32,225 nucleotides of DNA from a virus (taxonomy: Duplodnaviria > Heunggongvirae > Uroviricota > Caudoviricetes). Under the pieces are notes generated by a model. It did not search any database. It was not told where the DNA came from and saw nothing but the letters and a program-made list of their open reading frames with translations. Made by a program: the position numbers and the translations under genes. The DNA lies in the IMG/VR virus record IMGVR_UViG_2541047764_000008; one strand, written 5' to 3'. Shown here piece after piece: positions 230-11,582 of this stretch (its first letter is position 1; each line of letters starts with the position of its first letter).

Positions 230-1108
230 TTACTCATAGGTAGCAGATGAAATTTCAATCATTGACGATCTTTCAAAAATTTGCTTACCATTATTAAGAA
301 ATGTAGGGGACGAGAGAAGGGCATCGAGAGTCAACCATTGCCATAGATCGATCGTATACCTAGATTTAGGATAATCCTTGGATCGGGCATTCAGTAAGTC
401 ACGTTTAATCTCTATCATTTCATGCAATGATAAATTTTTAAAAGTAGCATTCCTGACCAATTCCTTAACTAAGCTAATTGCCTTCGCACTGAACGTGTCT
501 AGTATGCCGAATTTTTTAACATGAAATAACACTCTTTTATATTCAACTGTATTTTTCTCATAGTTAATTTGAAAATAAATTACATTATCCATTTCAGAAT
601 ATACAGCCGTTAACCAATTGTAATTATAGAACTGATCAAATAACGGATGAATTAATTGATTTTCTTTTGAAAGAGAGAAATATTTAGATTTCATTCTATT
701 GCAGTAATCACAAGCAGGGATAAGATTATTATAGGATATAGAAAGGGATGGAAAATCTTCTTTTGGTAAAAAATGATCTAACGTACTGGCTTCACCAATG
801 TGACATAACAAACATTTTTTATTCGGGCTTCGGCGAAGTAATTCATCATAATATTTTCTAGGCTGTGTTCTTTTTTTTGACAGCCTTTCATTATAAAGCC
901 TTAATAACTCAGACGAATCAAAACCTGCCGTCTTTGATATATCTTTAAATTCATAAAGCAGTCCATAAATTGCATGAATTTTGTAAATCTTGTGACAAGC
1001 CCTCAAGTATTCCCCTTGATCCTTTTCTACTTGAGTAAAGTCTCTATTGCGCCGCCCTACTACGCAACTCCTATATACATCATCAAATTTAACATGCATC
1101 CTCTTCAC
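230..1108 (-). CDS. HNH-nuclease-domain protein, second gene of a two-gene ATPase + HNH cassette (Septu PtuB-like architecture)
   Basis: 292-aa ORF with an HNH-type motif at residues ~99-140 (CLLCH...DHFLP...NNLIPACDYCNRMK). Its GTG start overlaps the upstream ATPase stop as GTGA; an ATG at 1099 is an alternative start. Markedly AT-rich by eye. Confidence 0.6.
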   Translation of the reverse strand: MKRMHVKFDDVYRSCVVGRRNRDFTQVEKDQGEYLRACHKIYKIHAIYGLLYEFKDISKTAGFDSSELLRLYNERLSKKRTQPRKYYDELLRRSPNKKCLLCHIGEASTLDHFLPKEDFPSLSISYNNLIPACDYCNRMKSKYFSLSKENQLIHPLFDQFYNYNWLTAVYSEMDNVIYFQINYEKNTVEYKRVLFHVKKFGILDTFSAKAISLVKELVRNATFKNLSLHEMIEIKRDLLNARSKDYPKSRYTIDLWQWLTLDALLSSPTFLNNGKQIFERSSMIEISSATYE

Positions 1109-2583
1109 CCTTTATTTTTTATAGCAGAGTAAACAACAGCACGCCCTTCCAAGCCGATCTGATTATTATATGCATTAAACACTGCACCAGCACTTGTATA
1201 TTTTTTGGAATCCTCCTCCAATAGAGAATAGAAGCCTGACTTTCGCATATCAAGGTTAAAAACTTCAGATGTAATTTCTCCTACCCCCTCGCCGAATGTT
1301 TCTATTGTTGGCCGCTGAAATTCAGCCTCTATATCGCCTGAGCGAAACATTTTCCAAATACAAGCTTTAGGTGTTTCTTGAAGAACTACTGGAGAGTGAG
1401 TGGCAATCACAGCCATCCCATTGTTTTCTTTCAGTATCTCAGACAACGTTCTAATAAATGCGGAAAGTAAAGGAGGATGCAAATGATTCTCTGGCTCATC
1501 GAAGATACATATTGTTTTATTTTCTATTAACTCAATAACATGAGTAATGTAGTATATTACCGCCGCATGCCCTGAGCTCAACGATTTAAAGATGGTTGTT
1601 GATGCATGTGTAAACTCCTCTTGGCTAACAGTGATGAGATTTGAAAGTCCTAAATCCTTAAAATTCACATCAACTTCTAAAGTCTCTATTATTCTAGTCC
1701 ATGTTCCTTTTTTTATTTCAGATCCATATATGCAATTATATAATGACTTGGAAAAATCATTAGCCAAATCATTGTTTATATCCTTTAGTTCTCCGCTACC
1801 TTGTTTATAGAGACCAATATATTTTTTCTTTGTTTGAGTTGTGCTAAACCTAACATCATTAAAATCAACATTTTCAAAAGGTTTATCAAAAACACTTAAT
1901 GAAAAATACAATAACAAACCAAAATCATAAACTGAGACAGGATCACCATTTATCTTTGTTACAACATAATTACTTTTATCGATATTTTCAACAATTGTTC
2001 TTAGTAAATGGCTTTTCCCTACCCCATTACGCCCAATGATTACATGGACATTTTTTGGCGGTTTAGAATCAGATTCCACGATAAAATCCGGCGAAACACC
2101 ATTCTCATAATTAACACGAAAACCGAAATGTCTCAATGAAACGCCAGACTGCAAAATGTCTCTAAACTGCATAACACTTGATATACTTACATATCTAGTG
2201 AGTGAGTCAACAAATACACTTTCATCCCTTACATCTTCAAAAATATTTTCATCATAAACGATATCTCTCAACCTAGTTAAAAGTTTCACCCGAAATTCTT
2301 GAGGCAAATTCTTTAAGGCCGAATAGTATTCTGGAGATTGTCCAAGTGAAAAATAATCATTAGCCAGACTATCAAACTCTGCATCTAACTTTTTATATGT
2401 ATGAACTGATTTCTCTTGTCTCTTAAATCCTATTTTAACCTCTCCAACCTTTACAACATTACTACCATGAGAATAATGTAGTAAAAATGAAGTTTCAAAT
2501 GAAAAATCATTCCAATTGGTTATTGGAGTTAGATATATTATAAATGTCGAATTTGATTGAGGAGGGCCAATTTTTATAAACAT
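1105..2583 (-). CDS. ABC-type (AAA_15/21-like) ATPase with ~180-aa N-terminal extension, first gene of the ATPase + HNH cassette (OLD/PtuA/GajA-like ATPase fold)
   Basis: 492-aa ORF with Walker A GRNGVGKS (184-191), signature-like LSSGH (335-339), Walker B ICIFDEPE (358-365) and H-loop ATHSP (393-397). GGAG sits 6 nt upstream of the ATG. The start is only 37 bp downstream of the int stop on the same strand. AT-rich by eye. Confidence 0.65.
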   Translation of the reverse strand: MFIKIGPPQSNSTFIIYLTPITNWNDFSFETSFLLHYSHGSNVVKVGEVKIGFKRQEKSVHTYKKLDAEFDSLANDYFSLGQSPEYYSALKNLPQEFRVKLLTRLRDIVYDENIFEDVRDESVFVDSLTRYVSISSVMQFRDILQSGVSLRHFGFRVNYENGVSPDFIVESDSKPPKNVHVIIGRNGVGKSHLLRTIVENIDKSNYVVTKINGDPVSVYDFGLLLYFSLSVFDKPFENVDFNDVRFSTTQTKKKYIGLYKQGSGELKDINNDLANDFSKSLYNCIYGSEIKKGTWTRIIETLEVDVNFKDLGLSNLITVSQEEFTHASTTIFKSLSSGHAAVIYYITHVIELIENKTICIFDEPENHLHPPLLSAFIRTLSEILKENNGMAVIATHSPVVLQETPKACIWKMFRSGDIEAEFQRPTIETFGEGVGEITSEVFNLDMRKSGFYSLLEEDSKKYTSAGAVFNAYNNQIGLEGRAVVYSAIKNKG

Positions 2584-2620
2584 ACTTGCTCCTTATAAGC
2601 CAAACCGTAACAAATTACAC

Positions 2621-3643
2621 TTAGAGTAAATTACTTAGAGGATTTAGTGTAACCGCATCCTCTAAATGCTCGGGAGAAAAGTGGGCATATCTCATCGTTT
2701 CACGAATATTAGCGTGGCCAAGAATGCGTTGCAATACAAGGATGTTCCCACCATTCATCATGAAATGAGACGCGAAGGTATGTCGTAATACGTGGGTCTT
2801 TTGCCCTTCAGCCAACTCAATAGATGTCAAAGCTAGCATCTTTTTAAAGTCTTGGTAGCAGGATTTAAACATCCTTCCTTGACGTGTGGATAGTTCGTCA
2901 TAGAGCCATTTAGGAATCGGAACAGTTCTATTCTTCTTACCTTTGGTTTTGGTGAAGGTCAGCTTGTAGGGTGAGAGTTGAGCGCGTGTAAGCCTCTCGG
3001 CTTCTCCCCATCGTGCACCGGTTGCCAAACATACCTTAACAATCATCGTAAGATTTTCTTTGCCATATTGTTCACAGGCTCGGAACAGCTCCGGGAGCTG
3101 AGACAAAGTTAGCCAGGACATTTCTTTCTCAGCTTCTTTGAATACGCGAATCCCGTCCAGTGGATTGGGTAAACTCCACTCCCCTAATCGTCGCAGTTCA
3201 TTGAACACTGCTTCGAGGTATTGCTGCTCGCGATTGACAGTTATAGGTTTGGCGATCCACTTCGCCGGGTCTTTGTGATAGCCGTTGTCTATTTCGCCAC
3301 GTAATCGACGGTCACGGTAATGAGCCCAATCTTTAGCGGTAAGACGAGATGCAATAGGGTCGCCCAACCCGTTACATACGATTTGAAGCTTTGCCAACCG
3401 CGACTTACTGGCTACTAACGCCTGACCGTGCAAATTGTGCCAAAGCTGAATAATCTCACTTAAGCGTCGGCGGTCTTCTTTCTTGCCGAGCCACGGCTTA
3501 TCTTCACTCTCGCTTTTGGTAAATGCTTCGAATGCCTCGGCCTCACCTTTGGTATTGAATTGACGACGTATACGCCGCCCTTCCCGGCCATTTGGATAAA
3601 GCTCACATAACCATTTACCATTTTTTTGCTTACTTACTGTCAT
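2621..3643 (-). CDS. int: Tyrosine integrase (P2/186 Int family)
   Basis: 340-aa ORF; the C-terminus carries the catalytic-region signature HVLRHTFASHF...LGHANIRETMRYAHF typical of tyrosine recombinases. It sits downstream of the repressor on the same strand, as in P2/186. Confidence 0.9.
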   Translation of the reverse strand: MTVSKQKNGKWLCELYPNGREGRRIRRQFNTKGEAEAFEAFTKSESEDKPWLGKKEDRRRLSEIIQLWHNLHGQALVASKSRLAKLQIVCNGLGDPIASRLTAKDWAHYRDRRLRGEIDNGYHKDPAKWIAKPITVNREQQYLEAVFNELRRLGEWSLPNPLDGIRVFKEAEKEMSWLTLSQLPELFRACEQYGKENLTMIVKVCLATGARWGEAERLTRAQLSPYKLTFTKTKGKKNRTVPIPKWLYDELSTRQGRMFKSCYQDFKKMLALTSIELAEGQKTHVLRHTFASHFMMNGGNILVLQRILGHANIRETMRYAHFSPEHLEDAVTLNPLSNLL

Positions 3644-4014: not shown

Positions 4015-4878
4015 TTAAACATGCTTTTCCAAGGTAAAGATAACTGCACCTGATGGTGTGATATCAGAGAGATTACATTCAAACTCAGCAGACTTATTTG
4101 ATAGCCTGACCTTTCCACCTGGCATTCTGATTACGTCAAAAATATCGAGCGCACCATCAATGCCAATAAGCCAACGACCATTTCCTATCTTTGAGTTAGA
4201 ACAATCAACAAGCCAAGATGCGCCAACTCCATCAATAAAGACCAACTCATCAATGTTTGCAGGAACCATTGAAAGGTCTGGAGTCCAACGCCCAATATCT
4301 TTTAACTCACCAGCTTCAAGACGACATTTTCTTACTGTTAAGGCGTTAAGTGATTCACCCTCTTTGCTGTCTCGCATTTGGCCTTTTCCTGTAGATAGCC
4401 ACTCTAACGATACGCCAGTATCGAGTGCGCAGGTCACAACCACATCGCCAGGGAAGAAGTCACGCCTAACCCAAGTGCTAATAGTACCGGAAGAAATACC
4501 TAATAAATCACCAAGCTCTTTTTGCATCGTAAAACCATAAGCATCCAGAATCCTACGCAAAACGGTTTTACCGCCGTTCGTCATAATCTCGTCATAAAGC
4601 TCTTTGCCTTTTAACTTGCAACCGACTCGCCCATGATTTGCATTTGCAAGCTCACCACTTACAAGCCAATTAATATCAGCGCCCGTGTCAAGACAACACC
4701 TAACTATGATGTTGCCAGGTATTGCATCGCGTTGAACCCAGCCGCTAACGCTATGTTTCGCGATTCCTAGCAGGTCAGCCAAATCCTTTTGCATCTTGAC
4801 GCCATAGGCTGACATTAAGCGCTCTAATACGCCATTTGACGCACCTATGCGCCACTGAACATCAAGCTCAGAACTCAT
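4015..4878 (-). CDS. cI: CI-like immunity repressor with tandemly duplicated N-terminal HTH domain
   Basis: 287-aa ORF. Residues ~17-75 and ~107-165 are an obvious internal repeat (LERLMSAYGVKMQKDLADLLGIAKHSVSGWVQRDAIPGNIIVRCCLDTGADINWLVSGE versus LRRILDAYGFTMQKELGDLLGISSGTISTWVRRDFFPGDVVVTCALDTGVSLEWLSTGK), each resembling the 186-type CI HTH module, followed by a C-terminal domain. It is divergent from the early operon. Confidence 0.7.
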   Translation of the reverse strand: MSSELDVQWRIGASNGVLERLMSAYGVKMQKDLADLLGIAKHSVSGWVQRDAIPGNIIVRCCLDTGADINWLVSGELANANHGRVGCKLKGKELYDEIMTNGGKTVLRRILDAYGFTMQKELGDLLGISSGTISTWVRRDFFPGDVVVTCALDTGVSLEWLSTGKGQMRDSKEGESLNALTVRKCRLEAGELKDIGRWTPDLSMVPANIDELVFIDGVGASWLVDCSNSKIGNGRWLIGIDGALDIFDVIRMPGGKVRLSNKSAEFECNLSDITPSGAVIFTLEKHV

Positions 4879-4907
4879 AAAAACCCCTACAGATAATTTT
4901 ATGGGTG

Positions 4908-4936
4908 TTTACAGAAAACTTTTTACGATCTATAGT
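4908..4936 (+). promoter_or_regulatory. Candidate early rightward promoter (pR/Pe-like) in the lysis-lysogeny switch region
   Basis: TTTACA (4908-4913), 17-bp spacer, TATAGT (4931-4936), upstream of an AGGAG RBS and the ATG at 5000. It lies in the intergenic region between divergent cI and the early operon. The partner leftward promoter was not confidently located. Confidence 0.45.
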
Positions 4937-4999
4937 GGCACTTATCGACCAAGATGCACACCACTGCACTACATTTCAAACAACAGGAGATAATGCGAT

Positions 5000-5353
5000 A
5001 TGTCAGATGCAAAATCAATCCCGCTGCATGACGCACAAAACTTACAAAATCAAACTGTATTGCTAGACGCTGGTCAGTTCAATGCGCTTGTAACCATGAT
5101 GCAGCTATCCATGCAAAACATGATTCGTACAGCGATGTTAGACACCATGTCAGTAAAAGACTTCGCCGCCGCCCGTGGCGTTAGCGAGCGTCTGGTCTGG
5201 CAATGGATTGATGAGGGCGTCCTTCTCAAAGCTCCCACCAAAGATGTTACCAGCAAAGAAAAAGCCGCTAAGCGTGGCCGCACCCTTATCAACGTCAAAG
5301 CATGGCGTGACAAACTGACCCAGCAAGCTATCGATTGCCGTTATATCAACTAA
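5000..5353 (+). CDS. Apl/Cox-like early regulator (HTH DNA-binding protein)
   Basis: 117-aa ORF, first gene of the rightward early operon in the position of P2 cox / 186 apl. It has a central HTH-like segment (VKDFAAARGVSERLVWQWIDEG) and an AGGAG RBS. Confidence 0.5.
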   Translation: MSDAKSIPLHDAQNLQNQTVLLDAGQFNALVTMMQLSMQNMIRTAMLDTMSVKDFAAARGVSERLVWQWIDEGVLLKAPTKDVTSKEKAAKRGRTLINVKAWRDKLTQQAIDCRYIN

Positions 5354-5403
5354 CAGTCATCGCTTAACTGAACTTGATTTTGCAAGTTAAAGGGAGTTAC
5401 AGC

Positions 5404-5913
5404 ATGTTAGATTTTCGTGTTTCGTCACATGCGCACTTTGACGAGGCCTGCAGAAAATTCGCAGCTACTCATAACGTGAAAGAACTAGCGAATAAAGCCG
5501 GAATCAAGCCGCATACGCTTTACAACAAACTCAACCCAGAACAGCCGCACCAGTTAACGCCGCGTGAAATCTGGACGCTGACAGACTTGACCGAAGACTC
5601 GACCCTCGTCGATGGTTTTCTGGCGCAGATCCATTGTCTGCCATGCGTACCGGTCAACGAACTGGCAAAAGAGAAACTGCAATCCTACGTCATGCGCGCA
5701 ATGAGTGAACTTGGCGAACTGGCAAGCGGTGCAGTTTCCGACGACCGCCTCACGCCAGCCAGAAAACAAAACATGATTGCTAGCGTAAATGCGGGGATTC
5801 GCATGTTGTCATTATCGGCAATGGCGCTGCATGCGCGTCTGCAAACTAATCCCGCTATGTCGAGCGTGGTCGATACCATGAGCGGTATTGGTGCATCCTT
5901 CGGGTTGATTTGA
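5404..5913 (+). CDS. cII: CII-like transcriptional activator (186 CII / CP76 family)
   Basis: 169 aa from the ATG at 5404 (AAAGGGAG RBS 8 nt upstream); the ORF track's longer form starts at a TTG at 5374. Its position after the apl-like gene and segments such as LTDLTEDSTLVDGFLAQIHCLPCVP match my recollection of 186 CII. Confidence 0.6.
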   Translation: MLDFRVSSHAHFDEACRKFAATHNVKELANKAGIKPHTLYNKLNPEQPHQLTPREIWTLTDLTEDSTLVDGFLAQIHCLPCVPVNELAKEKLQSYVMRAMSELGELASGAVSDDRLTPARKQNMIASVNAGIRMLSLSAMALHARLQTNPAMSSVVDTMSGIGASFGLI

Positions 5914-9198: not shown

Positions 9199-9218
9199 TA
9201 CTGTATAAATATACAGTA
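9199..9218 (+). promoter_or_regulatory. LexA operator (SOS box) overlapping a promoter upstream of the Tum/DinI-like module
   Basis: TACTGTATAAATATACAGTA is a near-perfect match to the LexA consensus TACTG(TA)5CAGTA. A -35-like TTGCCA sits at 9185-9190 and the box overlaps the -10 region. A GGGAGG RBS and the ATG at 9238 follow. Confidence 0.75.
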
Positions 9219-9237: not shown

Positions 9238-9420
9238 ATGGTTGGCGAACATTTCAGCCGAACGCAGCAAAAGTGGGCTTGTGTGCAATTTATTGCCGAG
9301 GTATCTCTGATTGCAAACTGCAAGCCATCAGACTTAAAGCTCGCGCTCACTCTCATTGCAGACCTAGCAAACAGCGAAAATAACGAAACCGAAGATGATA
9401 ATTTTTATAAGGCTGATTAG
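9238..9420 (+). CDS. Small SOS-regulated ORF, possible N-terminal part of a Tum-like antirepressor
   Basis: 60-aa ORF with a strong RBS (GGGAGG, 5-nt spacer) directly downstream of the LexA box. It is in the same frame as the DinI-like ORF, separated only by TAG (9418-9420) plus one codon. Confidence 0.45.
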   Translation: MVGEHFSRTQQKWACVQFIAEVSLIANCKPSDLKLALTLIADLANSENNETEDDNFYKAD

Positions 9421-9423
9421 ATT

Positions 9424-9657
9424 ATGAGAATCAATATCACGTTGGATAAAGAGCAAAAAATTAGTCAGGCAACGTTGGATGCACTTGAGGCTGAGCTGTA
9501 CCGCAATCTTCAACCTATTTACCCAAAGACTGCTATCCGCATTCGTAAGGGCTCAGCTAATGGCGTTGAGTTAAGCGGTTTGAAACTGGACGAAGATAAA
9601 AAACGAGTAATGGAAATCATGCAGCAGGTATGGGAGGACGATAGCTGGCTGCATTAA
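9424..9657 (+). CDS. DinI-like protein (possible C-terminal/Tum72-like part of a Tum antirepressor)
   Basis: 77-aa ORF (MRINITLDKEQ...WEDDSWLH) resembling E. coli DinI in length and in its acidic Trp-containing C-terminus. It lies downstream of the LexA-controlled promoter. Confidence 0.7.
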   Translation: MRINITLDKEQKISQATLDALEAELYRNLQPIYPKTAIRIRKGSANGVELSGLKLDEDKKRVMEIMQQVWEDDSWLH

Positions 9658-10130: not shown

Positions 10131-10272
10131 TCTGTTCCGTAGAGATTGGCCCAAACCGGCACTATTAAAGCCGGTTTTCGTATGTCCAATCTAAAGAATG
10201 GGGGCTGACATCCCACCATCAGATTTGTGTTATTTTAGTGCTACTCATTCGTCATTAGACATTGTAAGGGCA

Positions 10273-10989
10273 ATGTATATGAAACCAAGCACACACTGCG
10301 TTTATTGCGGTGTTCTCATGAATAAGGTTGAAAATCACCCCCACTGCCGCTCAGTTGAACACATGATTCCGCAAGTTTCAGTCTCCATTCATAGAACCAA
10401 CGGCGAAGGTGATTTCTATGTATGCAAAAAGTGCAATGGCGATAAAAGCCGAATTGACGAGGTGTTAGGTGTCATTTGCCGCATGGTAGGAGAGCACTCA
10501 ACAGGCAGCTTTGATGCTGTTAATAAATTCCATAATGCGCTTAAAAGAAAAGACTCGAAATTTCGTGAAGCATTCCAGAGTGTTAGGCATACAAAAAAAG
10601 GTGCGCAGATAACATTACCCCTAAATGGTAGGGAGATTTACCAATACGGCACCTGGTTAGCCAAGGGAGTATTTTTCTTAGAGTATGGGCAATTGTTGAC
10701 TGTAGATAAATTAATTTGGATTAATATCGTTCGCCACGATGAAGTAATGGCTATTAAAGAAATGTATAGAAATGAACGTGGCTCTGAGGCATTTGATGAT
10801 TTATCGAAGAATAGCAACATTCCAAATATTAATGGCGAGTCGTTTCTGATTGTTGGCCAGGATGCCCGAGAAATGTTTATTTGCTTCAATAGAGTAATGA
10901 TGTTTCATATAAAGATACTGGATAGAACGTTTATTAATCAAAAAAAATGCAAAAAAGCCCTACTCAATCTGGAAAAAAGGGTTCGATAA
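10273..10989 (+). CDS. HNH-nuclease-domain protein with uncharacterised ~170-aa C-terminal domain (moron in the A-to-cos accessory hotspot)
   Basis: HNH motif at the N-terminus (CVYCG...HPHCRSVEHMIPQ...FYVCKKCNGDKS). AT-rich by eye and sharply different from flanking phage DNA. Start uncertain: ATG at 10273 or 10279; the track's longest form starts at 10198. Confidence 0.55.
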   Translation: MYMKPSTHCVYCGVLMNKVENHPHCRSVEHMIPQVSVSIHRTNGEGDFYVCKKCNGDKSRIDEVLGVICRMVGEHSTGSFDAVNKFHNALKRKDSKFREAFQSVRHTKKGAQITLPLNGREIYQYGTWLAKGVFFLEYGQLLTVDKLIWINIVRHDEVMAIKEMYRNERGSEAFDDLSKNSNIPNINGESFLIVGQDAREMFICFNRVMMFHIKILDRTFINQKKCKKALLNLEKRVR

Positions 10990-11153: not shown

Positions 11154-11357
11154 TGCGCGCCAGCGGTGGTGCGTATTATTAAAAATTATCGTCTGAGAAC
11201 GTCGTGACGGCGCTGTAGTGGCCGGGTGTGATCGTGGGCGCGTGGTGCGTCTGTGGCGTGGTGCTAAAGGATGGGATCAGTTGCACAATTTTACGGTTTC
11301 GCTTTGGCTAATATCCATATTGAGACTTTATGTTCCCCACAACAGTTGGAGGCTTTA

Positions 11358-11582
11358 ATGGATAACTATCATATTACAAAAGATGGCGATAAGTGGAAGT
11401 TGCAAAAAGAGGGCAATGACCGCCCTAGCAAGACCGCGCCCACAAAGGCCGAGCTGATTAAAACAACATCTGAGTTTATGTCGAACAAAACAGGCTCGGT
11501 CAAAATTCACAAGGAAGATGGGAAAATTCAGGAAGAACGCACTTATCAGAGAAAAGATGATCCTAAAAAGTCTAAGGGCTAA
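11358..11582 (+). CDS. Small conserved hypothetical protein (DUF2188-like)
   Basis: 74 aa from the ATG at 11358 with a GGAGG RBS 5 nt upstream. The pattern KDGDKWKL...G...IHKEDGKIQEERTY...DP resembles small DUF2188-type proteins (from memory). Confidence 0.4.
   Translation: MDNYHITKDGDKWKLQKEGNDRPSKTAPTKAELIKTTSEFMSNKTGSVKIHKEDGKIQEERTYQRKDDPKKSKG

Follow-up and report, generated by a model that had tools for sequence, protein, structure and literature searches.

The CI repressor of phage 186 is among the best-studied alternatives to the lambda switch, and its oddity is that one helix-turn-helix (HTH) domain serves two operator classes on a DNA-wrapping wheel. 186 CI (PDB entries 2FJR and 2FKD) forms a 14-mer wheel with sites at pR, pL, FL, FR and pB, and CI sites are marked in the annotated 186 record at pR, FL (inside cI), FR and pB (the late-activator promoter), with the sequence ATTCAC-N5-GTGAAT at FL, FR and pB and unlike sequences at pR. 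In work ascribed to Shearwin and colleagues from 2002, the single HTH is said to recognise both of these unlike site classes. Here, the cI gene of a related E. coli prophage was examined in the IMG/VR virus record IMGVR_UViG_2541047764_000008 (32,225 nucleotides, the whole of which is referred to as the window), where an open reading frame (ORF) on the minus strand (4015–4878) encodes a CI of 287 amino acids (aa) with two HTH domains, N1 and N2. From comparisons with related sequences we lean, by a modest degree, towards a dual-specificity repressor in which N2 and the C-terminal domain would form a core that reads conserved distal palindromes and N1 would set immunity at pR. We are more confident of the link between N2 and the palindromes than of that between N1 and pR.

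The closest phage was Salmonella phage PSP3 (genus Eganvirus), the CI of which (AAN08403) is an orthologue with 83.6% identity over the full length. PSP3 has the same N1 helix, intergenic region and tumA/tumB genes, but N2, the C-terminal domain and the DUF2511 gene represent another allele that is synonymously saturated (proportion of synonymous differences, pS, ~0.78). The window gene had been described, in a sequence-only reading, as an immunity repressor with two copies of an HTH module of 186-CI type ahead of a single C-terminal domain, and both the extent of the ORF and the residue ranges given for the two copies agree with the BLASTP, Pfam and hidden Markov model (HMM) results, the gene being the immunity repressor of a 186/PSP3-like (Eganvirus-type) prophage. 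When residues 1–89 were compared with residues 90–184 using BLASTP, residues 17–76 aligned without gaps to residues ~105–164 (31/60 identical, 52%; E 3e-25). A Pfam search found PF07022 (Phage_CI_repr) in two separately significant stretches (E 2e-52, best 106–169) and a single match to PF16452 (Phage_CI_C; 182–275, E 4.2e-18), and a custom HMM likewise returned two HTH domains and not one, at 12–76 and 102–165. The AlphaFold2 model (predicted local distance difference test, pLDDT, 78; predicted template modelling score, pTM, 0.50) includes two separate five-helix bundles and a single beta-rich C-terminal domain, connected through linkers of low confidence (79–87 and 171–178). With pLDDT below 50 in these linkers and the pTM of 0.50, the inter-domain geometry of the model was unusable.

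The C-terminal domain (residues 182–287; 4018–4335, minus strand) superimposed on that of 186 CI (2fkd_A) with a template modelling (TM) score of 0.88 and a root-mean-square deviation of 1.8 Å over 109 columns in a Foldseek search, so this domain is of the 186 oligomerisation type, and its predicted fold is compatible with a 186-type wheel (a heptamer of dimers wrapping DNA). The 186 CI structure 2fjr matched residues 105–280, comprising the second HTH and the C-terminal domain (E 1.2e-20), and 186 CI and all single-HTH CIs (~190 aa) align to residues ~100–285 of the window CI. N2 (residues 103–166; 4381–4572, minus strand; recognition helix ISSGTISTWVRRD) therefore corresponds in position to the N-terminal domain of 186 CI, with ~28% identity between the two proteins over N2 and the C-terminal domain. 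N1 (residues 15–76; 4651–4836, minus strand), with recognition helix IAKHSVSGWVQRD, is the proposed immunity-specific head. The inter-domain linker between them (residues 77–102; 4573–4650, minus strand) is predicted to be partly disordered and then helical at 92–101 before N2, and its sequence is variable among homologues apart from the ELANAN and KLKGK motifs. The window CI thus shares its HTH and C-terminal Pfam families with 186 CI, but has two HTHs rather than one. It belongs to both the 186 CI family and the PSP3 subfamily, whose layout (N1, linker, N2 and C-terminal domain in ~278–289 aa, with the N2 helix I-S-S-G-T-I-S-T-W) was evident in the alignment to 119 members. LexA chains were only distant fold matches to the C-terminal domain (TM 0.4–0.6 in Foldseek) and the Pfam search found no match to Peptidase_S24 in CI. 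As tumA is present, an antirepressor route of induction is favoured over RecA-stimulated self-cleavage.

The two heads were found to evolve in opposite ways. Among the 119 homologues, the mean identity to the window CI was 0.94 for N2, but 0.70 for N1 and 0.71 for the C-terminal domain. The N2 recognition helix is almost fixed, and its pattern, I-[SP]-[ST]-[GA]-T-[IVM]-S-[TA]-W, is kept even in proteins with only 42–49% overall identity, whereas the N1 recognition helix falls into discrete types, including IAKHSVSGW (window and PSP3), VPSNSVSTW (Midge), IHANNVSSW (SW9) and IYANNISSW, with at least 24 types among the IMG/VR loci. For N2, pS was 0.6–0.83 but the proportion of nonsynonymous differences (pN) was 0.03–0.05, and because synonymous sites are saturated while pN is low, the conservation reflects selection at the protein level and not recent homogenisation of the DNA. 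N2 is therefore under extreme protein-level purifying selection. For N1, pN was 0.26–0.29 between types and 0.014 within a type, and the variation lies mainly at positions 1–3 and 7 of the recognition helix, with the HTH signature of the family (R20, Y25, W47, R50, T65, G66 and W71) invariant.

N1 and the neighbouring left half of the pR region are exchanged as one cassette. In sliding-window comparisons with SW9, identity was 97–100% in int and to the right of position 4999, but 34–63% in 4575–4908. Comparison with PSP3 gave the reverse, with 89–94% identity in the cassette and 44–84% in N2, the C-terminal domain and the DUF2511 gene. The proposal in the sequence-only reading that the extra HTH module bears on immunity type is supported. 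In one account of the P2, W-phi and P2 Hy dis group (PMC1904268), heteroimmune phages are likewise described on a near-identical backbone, with operators that differ in sequence, in spacing and in position relative to the early promoter. However, the P2-like C repressors are unrelated small single-head proteins, with no second conserved head and no distal palindromes.

An 18-bp palindrome with the consensus AACTTGCA-N2-TGCAAGTT (here N2 stands for two bases) was found at the positions of the distal CI operators FL and FR of 186, inside cI and before cII, respectively; in 186 FR lies 14 nt upstream of the cII ATG. The positions are common to both systems, but the palindrome differs from that of 186. 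The FL-equivalent candidate operator, GATTTGCATTTGCAAGCT (4635–4652), is located in the linker-coding segment ~270 bp to the left of pR, where it encodes ELANAN, and the FR-equivalent candidate, AACTTGATTTTGCAAGTT (5371–5388), is a perfect palindrome (6-6-6) located 15 nt before the ATG of cII. A position weight matrix (PWM) of the palindrome was built from 20 Rahnella/Ewingella loci encoding a CI with an N2-type head only. In the 32-kb window, this PWM ranked 5371–5388 first (23.0 bits) and 4635–4652 second (18.1 bits), the 95th percentile of shuffle maxima being 15.6. A third match at the 3′ end of cI (4018–4035; AACATGCTTTTCCAAGGT) scored 11.6 bits and is probably due to chance, as it was not found at the same place in PSP3, and 5039–5056 was a weak candidate site only (9.6 bits). 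FL and FR were the top matches in all 15 PSP3-like loci (15/15), which represent several N1 types, and were joined by a site at the late-activator (pag/ogr) promoter where the locus includes it; in relatives, the palindrome also overlaps the -35 of this promoter. The 186 and Elveevirus loci, used as negative controls, had no PWM match above 9.1.

Inside cI, the choice of codons maintains the FL palindrome. Among 90 distinct genes, Leu77 is encoded by CTT in 53 of 53 cases (26% elsewhere in the gene), Ala78 by GCA in 54/56 and Ala80 by GCA in 44/46 (31% elsewhere for both), and Asn79 by AAT in 68/69 (68% elsewhere). Where the peptide is changed to LTNVS, the corresponding DNA, CTTACAAATGTAAGT, keeps the palindrome through symmetric base changes. 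The palindrome is retained irrespective of N1 type and varies in step with the N2 recognition helix, as seen in 53 distinct combinations of 24 N1 helices and 15 N2 helices from IMG/VR. With the N2 helix IPSGTMSAW, FL had A6/T13 in 10 of 11 combinations, compared with none of 30 with helices ending in STW (Fisher 1e-8, kinship ignored), and the FR variant followed the same trend (7/11 versus 0/7, kinship again ignored). Moreover, one N1 helix (IAKSNVASW) that is paired with two N2 classes was associated with two FL classes (locus L053 versus L054).

The Rahnella/Ewingella loci represent a prophage remnant located beside aroF-tyrA in 20 species (L012–L031), which consists of a CI with a single N2-type head (helix LSSGTISTWVRRN), a 91-aa ORF, a TraR/DksA-like gene and gene A. 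In these loci, a promoter divergent from cI (TTGACA-N17-TAGATT) has its spacer occupied by the palindrome AACTTGCAAATGCAAGTT. The remnant is without int, apl and cII, but retains CI and the palindrome, and one species carries a symmetric compensatory variant, AACTCGCAAATGCGAGTT. These sequences show that, in 20 species, the palindrome is kept under selection with a CI whose only head is of the N2 type. The remnant may have lost N1, or its single-headed form may be the ancestral one, with FL then a former promoter operator that became part of the coding sequence. The CI and palindromic putative operator of the remnant also suggest a domesticated repressor module.

The remnants bear on a different explanation of the conservation of N2, namely that N2 is conserved as a docking site, for TumA or as a dimer interface, and that the palindromes are bound by a different conserved protein, such as the Apl analogue, CII or a host factor. 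Between N1 types TumA is 98–100% identical, and only phages with a PSP3-type CI carry it; FR overlaps the region of the CII-dependent promoter pE of 186. Both observations would fit this explanation. As tumA is near-identical at synonymous sites too, the invariance of TumA was considered uninformative as evidence for a target on N2. A docking role alone is very unlikely given that remnants without apl and cII keep CI and the palindrome, including the compensatory variant, that half-site bases co-vary with the N2 helix, and that the sites lie at positions of experimentally defined 186 CI sites. A TumA target on N2 would, moreover, be compatible with N2 reading the palindromes and is no replacement for it.

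At pR, the situation differs from that at the distal sites. The pR candidate (4908–4936, plus strand) has a -35 of TTTACA, a 17-nt spacer and a -10 of TATAGT (promoter scan 10/12), and both hexamers are conserved in all immunity types. However, ~55 bp around and upstream of the hexamers varies little within an N1 type and cannot be aligned between types, and the type-specific half of the cI-apl intergenic region in the window (4879–4930) contains the candidate N1 operators TACAGATAATTTT (4888–4900) and TACAGAAAACTTT (4910–4922), 22 bp apart. No N2-type full site or half-site was found in the pR region, where the best half-site scored 5.0 of a possible 13.9. Many unrelated pR sequences could not all be read by an invariant N2, and no N2-class site is present there, so N2 is not expected to be the reader of pR. 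N1 is assigned to pR because of this elimination of N2, the type-specific conservation (confounded by linkage) and its intact HTH signature with variation in the recognition helix.

Under the dual-specificity reading, N2 and the C-terminal domain would be a complete 186-like repressor core, pairs of N2 heads of which would read the palindromes at FL, FR and pag, leading to looping, cooperativity and repression of the late activator. N1 would be an added head that reads a type-specific sequence over the pR -35 and spacer and so sets immunity. Heteroimmune relatives would then have the N2 sites and the LexA-controlled TumA in common, the N1/pR cassette being their only difference. The two site classes that one head serves in 186 would here be divided between two.

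Several observations weigh against this reading. N1 adjoins pR and FL lies between N1 and N2, so linkage is a confounder and co-inheritance alone could yield some of the co-variation. Some lineages with the standard N2 helix have a weak FL and no detectable FR, FR reached at least 8 bits in only 18 of the 53 distinct combinations, and a young shared backbone partly explains why FR and the pag site are conserved in PSP3, Midge and SW9. The palindrome in the remnant shares its reading frame and its distance to N2 with FL (KLAFAS...KLRG in place of ELANAN...KLKG), which indicates that it is homologous to FL by descent and that the set used to build the PWM was not fully independent; the Rahnella single-HTH CI was accordingly downgraded as an independent test. 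The AlphaFold2 model carries no information on relative domain orientation. For N1, a search for operator repeats in 4880–5000 and flanking DNA had been suggested in the sequence-only reading; the 13-mer pair with 22-bp spacing was seen there, but it is not statistically significant in the window. A repeat search across 24 N1 types gave scores and spacings that were the same as those of shuffles. Tandem direct repeats about two helical turns apart therefore have no support as N1 operators beyond shuffles, and the pair in the window is a candidate only.

These results could also be read to mean that N2 does all of the DNA binding, using a second recognition mode at pR, and that N1 is a regulatory module such as an antirepressor decoy or a partner-switching or dimerisation surface. 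The use of one HTH for two unlike site classes by 186 CI provides a precedent, the N1 operators are not statistically definable and the co-variation of N1 with pR can be explained by physical linkage. However, pR-proximal DNA is wholly different between types while N2 is invariant, and N1 not only keeps the HTH signature residues but varies at recognition-helix positions 1–3 and 7, the pattern expected for a change of specificity. We therefore regard a purely regulatory N1 as rather unlikely.

Two DNA-reading modules per chain are also found in engineered single-chain 434 repressors, which bind one asymmetric site as a monomer. A two-domain mycobacteriophage repressor of the TipsytheTRex type similarly uses both modules to read one asymmetric site as a monomer (PMC9283540). 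The window CI resembles these proteins in having two modules per chain, but unlike them appears to have two site classes, and carries a 186-type oligomerisation domain. An equivalent arrangement, a single-chain pseudo-dimer, had been suggested from the window sequence; N1 and N2 of one chain would bind the two halves of an operator, a monomer would do the work of the 186 CI dimer, and operators would be asymmetric composites. The partly disordered linker of ~26 residues could span one helical turn and the pR-proximal sequences are not clean palindromes, as such a model would allow. However, two heads reading one operator are hard to reconcile with an invariant N2 and a hypervariable N1, and each conserved site is a full, symmetric palindrome composed of two halves of the N2 class, these sites tracking N2 and not N1. 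No unit with one constant and one variable half was found across N1 types, pR lacks even an N2-class half-site (best 5.0 of 13.9), and N2-only CIs exist with the same palindrome. It is thus unlikely that the two heads act as a pseudo-dimer, and this part of the sequence-only reading is not supported.

The same tandem layout was found in the isolated phages PSP3, SEN1, SW9, SI22, Midge, RCIP0057 and vB_EcoM-613R3, on 83 IMG/VR viral contigs, and in 119 of the best 120 of 832 database homologues, nearly all of which are 267–289 aa. Hosts of these best 120 homologues include Klebsiella, Escherichia, Salmonella, Enterobacter, Citrobacter, Pantoea, Brenneria and Mixta, and the exact window protein is recorded on 106 contigs named E. 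coli. A fusion or sequencing artefact, in which a frameshift, a misassembly or a recent duplication had joined two repressor genes, is excluded in view of these occurrences, with the identical protein on the 106 E. coli contigs and the layout in seven isolated phages and hundreds of clusters. Furthermore, the N1–N2 divergence is old (48–52% identity) and N1 domains form their own clade.

Tandem-HTH CIs are not rare, being present in hundreds of Enterobacterales prophages, and the earlier description of a duplicated domain as unusual for the family was overstated. An exhaustive search of representatives of clusters at 50% identity identified 471 proteins that match CI, and ~30 of the best 150 representatives have at least two HTH domains; PSP3 itself was sequenced long ago. 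In a neighbour-joining tree of the domains (no support values), the N1 domains of the PSP3 group form a clade of their own and the N2 domains group with single-HTH CIs, and the tandem layout appears from these sequences to have arisen at least three times. In the Elveevirus CI (e.g. Klebsiella phage Kp4860-7; L003, coordinates 2420–3361), the two heads adjoin different single-HTH CIs (70% identity for N1 and 83% for N2), as if two specificities had been fused, and in a third clade (P0178, P0190 and P0195) N1 and N2 are sisters of each other. The CIs of Elveevirus and the third clade have the same order of N1, N2 and C-terminal domain as the window CI, but differ in their independent origin and in having no AACTTGCA-type palindromes. 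A repeat search for operators of the Elveevirus tandem CI gave nothing convincing. P0136 was also listed among the independently evolved tandem-HTH CIs, and P0213 (525 aa) and P0253 (1170 aa), with 5–7 CI-HTH-like stretches per chain, could be arrays of the CI-HTH domain. For two single-HTH CIs of N2-like type, P0135 and P0139, the phage collection searched yielded no close relatives.

PSP3 CI has been described as having 'a longer C-terminal domain' than 186 CI (PMC3448106), which indicates that the duplication was not recognised there. No description of the duplication in PSP3 CI was found in the openly searchable literature, subscription-only papers being outside the search. The domain architecture is visible in databases, but apparently undescribed in the searchable literature.

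The gene order in the window is int (2621–3643), a DUF2511/YebY gene and cI, and, in the divergent direction, an Apl/Cox analogue, cII, fil, a DUF2732 gene and the gene A replicase. As in 186, int and cI are transcribed leftward and apl and cII rightward, with face-to-face (convergent) pR and pL, the latter by position only. The predicted pL (4990–5018, minus strand) has a -10 of CATTAT (reverse complement of 4990–4995) and a -35 of TTGATT (reverse complement of 5013–5018), and its position relative to the apl ATG is as annotated for 186 pL, but it matches the consensus at only 8/12 and is under the scan threshold. The pR–pL spacer (4937–4989) is the positional counterpart of the 186 Apl-site array and is identical in immunity types a (PSP3 and the window), c (Midge) and d (SW9), though this may merely reflect the young shared backbone. 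The invariant right half (4937–4999) was also considered as an N2 target and rejected, as it corresponds to the 186 Apl array and pL, and the backbone to the right of pR is young (99–100% identity to PSP3 and SW9). The sequence TGCAAAWKCAA at pL (5008–5018) was rejected as an operator as its full PWM score was -3.6, and a cluster of AAGATGCA motifs near the switch was discarded because it is not enriched over the whole window and arises in part from homologous MQK codons of the two HTHs. Within the 53-bp spacer, TGCAC repeats 10 bp apart could be a binding array for the Apl analogue. A GATC (Dam site) before or overlapping the pR -10 (CGATCTATAGT and variants, 4926–4936) was seen in most immunity types and was absent from Midge-type and Enterobacter MGH24 loci.

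The 117-aa Apl/Cox analogue (5000–5353, plus strand) matched phrog_3554 with a weak Cox-like match and no family in the Pfam search, and is equivalent to PSP3 gp30, which has been termed a 'singleton' (PMC3448106). The mechanically called ORF for cII (PF06892; 5404–5913, plus strand) begins at a TTG at 5374, but the true start is the ATG at 5404, as MLDFRVS aligns with 186 MFDFQVS. The FR-equivalent palindrome is held within the 30 nt up to this ATG.

After gene A, a perfect LexA box, CTGTATAAATATACAG (9201–9216, plus strand), conserved in PSP3, Midge and SW9, precedes tumA (9238–9420, plus strand), a 60-aa SOS-controlled antirepressor candidate with 98% identity to PSP3 TumA, and the DinI-like tumB (9424–9657, plus strand; phrog_189 positions 71–148), with 47% identity to residues 71–145 of 186 Tum. 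As tumB is equivalent to the C-terminal half of 186 Tum, 186 tum is split in two here, and the upstream half in PSP3 is reported to be the antirepressor (PMC3121763). In the phage collection, tumA was found only in the 10 phage records that have a PSP3-type tandem-HTH CI. At the sequence level, the locus thus has the LexA-controlled Tum-type antirepressor induction that 186 uses instead of RecA cleavage.

Two further regions were observed. Two genes directly to the left of the integrase (230–2583, minus strand) correspond to the candidate defence system PDC-M01, one encoding a PtuA-like AAA ATPase (492 aa, E 2e-158) and the other an HNH nuclease (292 aa, E 8e-142); this Septu-like pair probably lies beyond attL and not within the prophage. 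A 263-aa ORF (10198–10989, plus strand; phrog_31193) with weak PtuB/HNH-like matches and a DUF2188 ORF (11271–11582, plus strand), situated after the SOS operon and ahead of the late genes, may occupy a 'moron' or cargo slot.

That the two heads would divide the work in this way is a new proposal and one open to direct test. More generally, tandem-HTH CIs may be modular dual-specificity repressors that combine a conserved chassis (N2 and the C-terminal domain), reading a palindrome common to all relatives at FL, FR and the late-activator promoter, with an immunity cassette (N1 and the pR operators) that recombination swaps, a generalisation to which we give slightly less than even credence. 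If it is true, FL would be a former promoter operator of a single-headed ancestor that was captured as the ELANAN linker when N1 was fused, and a putative operator in coding sequence that dictates linker residues would be a clean example of overlapping code. Cross-talk between heteroimmune phages co-resident in Enterobacterales would also be expected via the shared distal and late-promoter sites and TumA. For synthetic biology, the at least 24 N1 types would offer a natural set of DNA-binding modules that share one scaffold and may be orthogonal to one another. The exchange seen between relatives suggests that new immunity types arise on a near-constant backbone by replacement of a ~350-bp cassette of N1 and pR. 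Two heads with opposite evolution, each separately mutable or swappable, provide a direct handle on the 186 question, and, if the reading proposed here is true, the PSP3-type CI would be a natural two-head answer to the long-standing puzzle of how one head serves two site classes.

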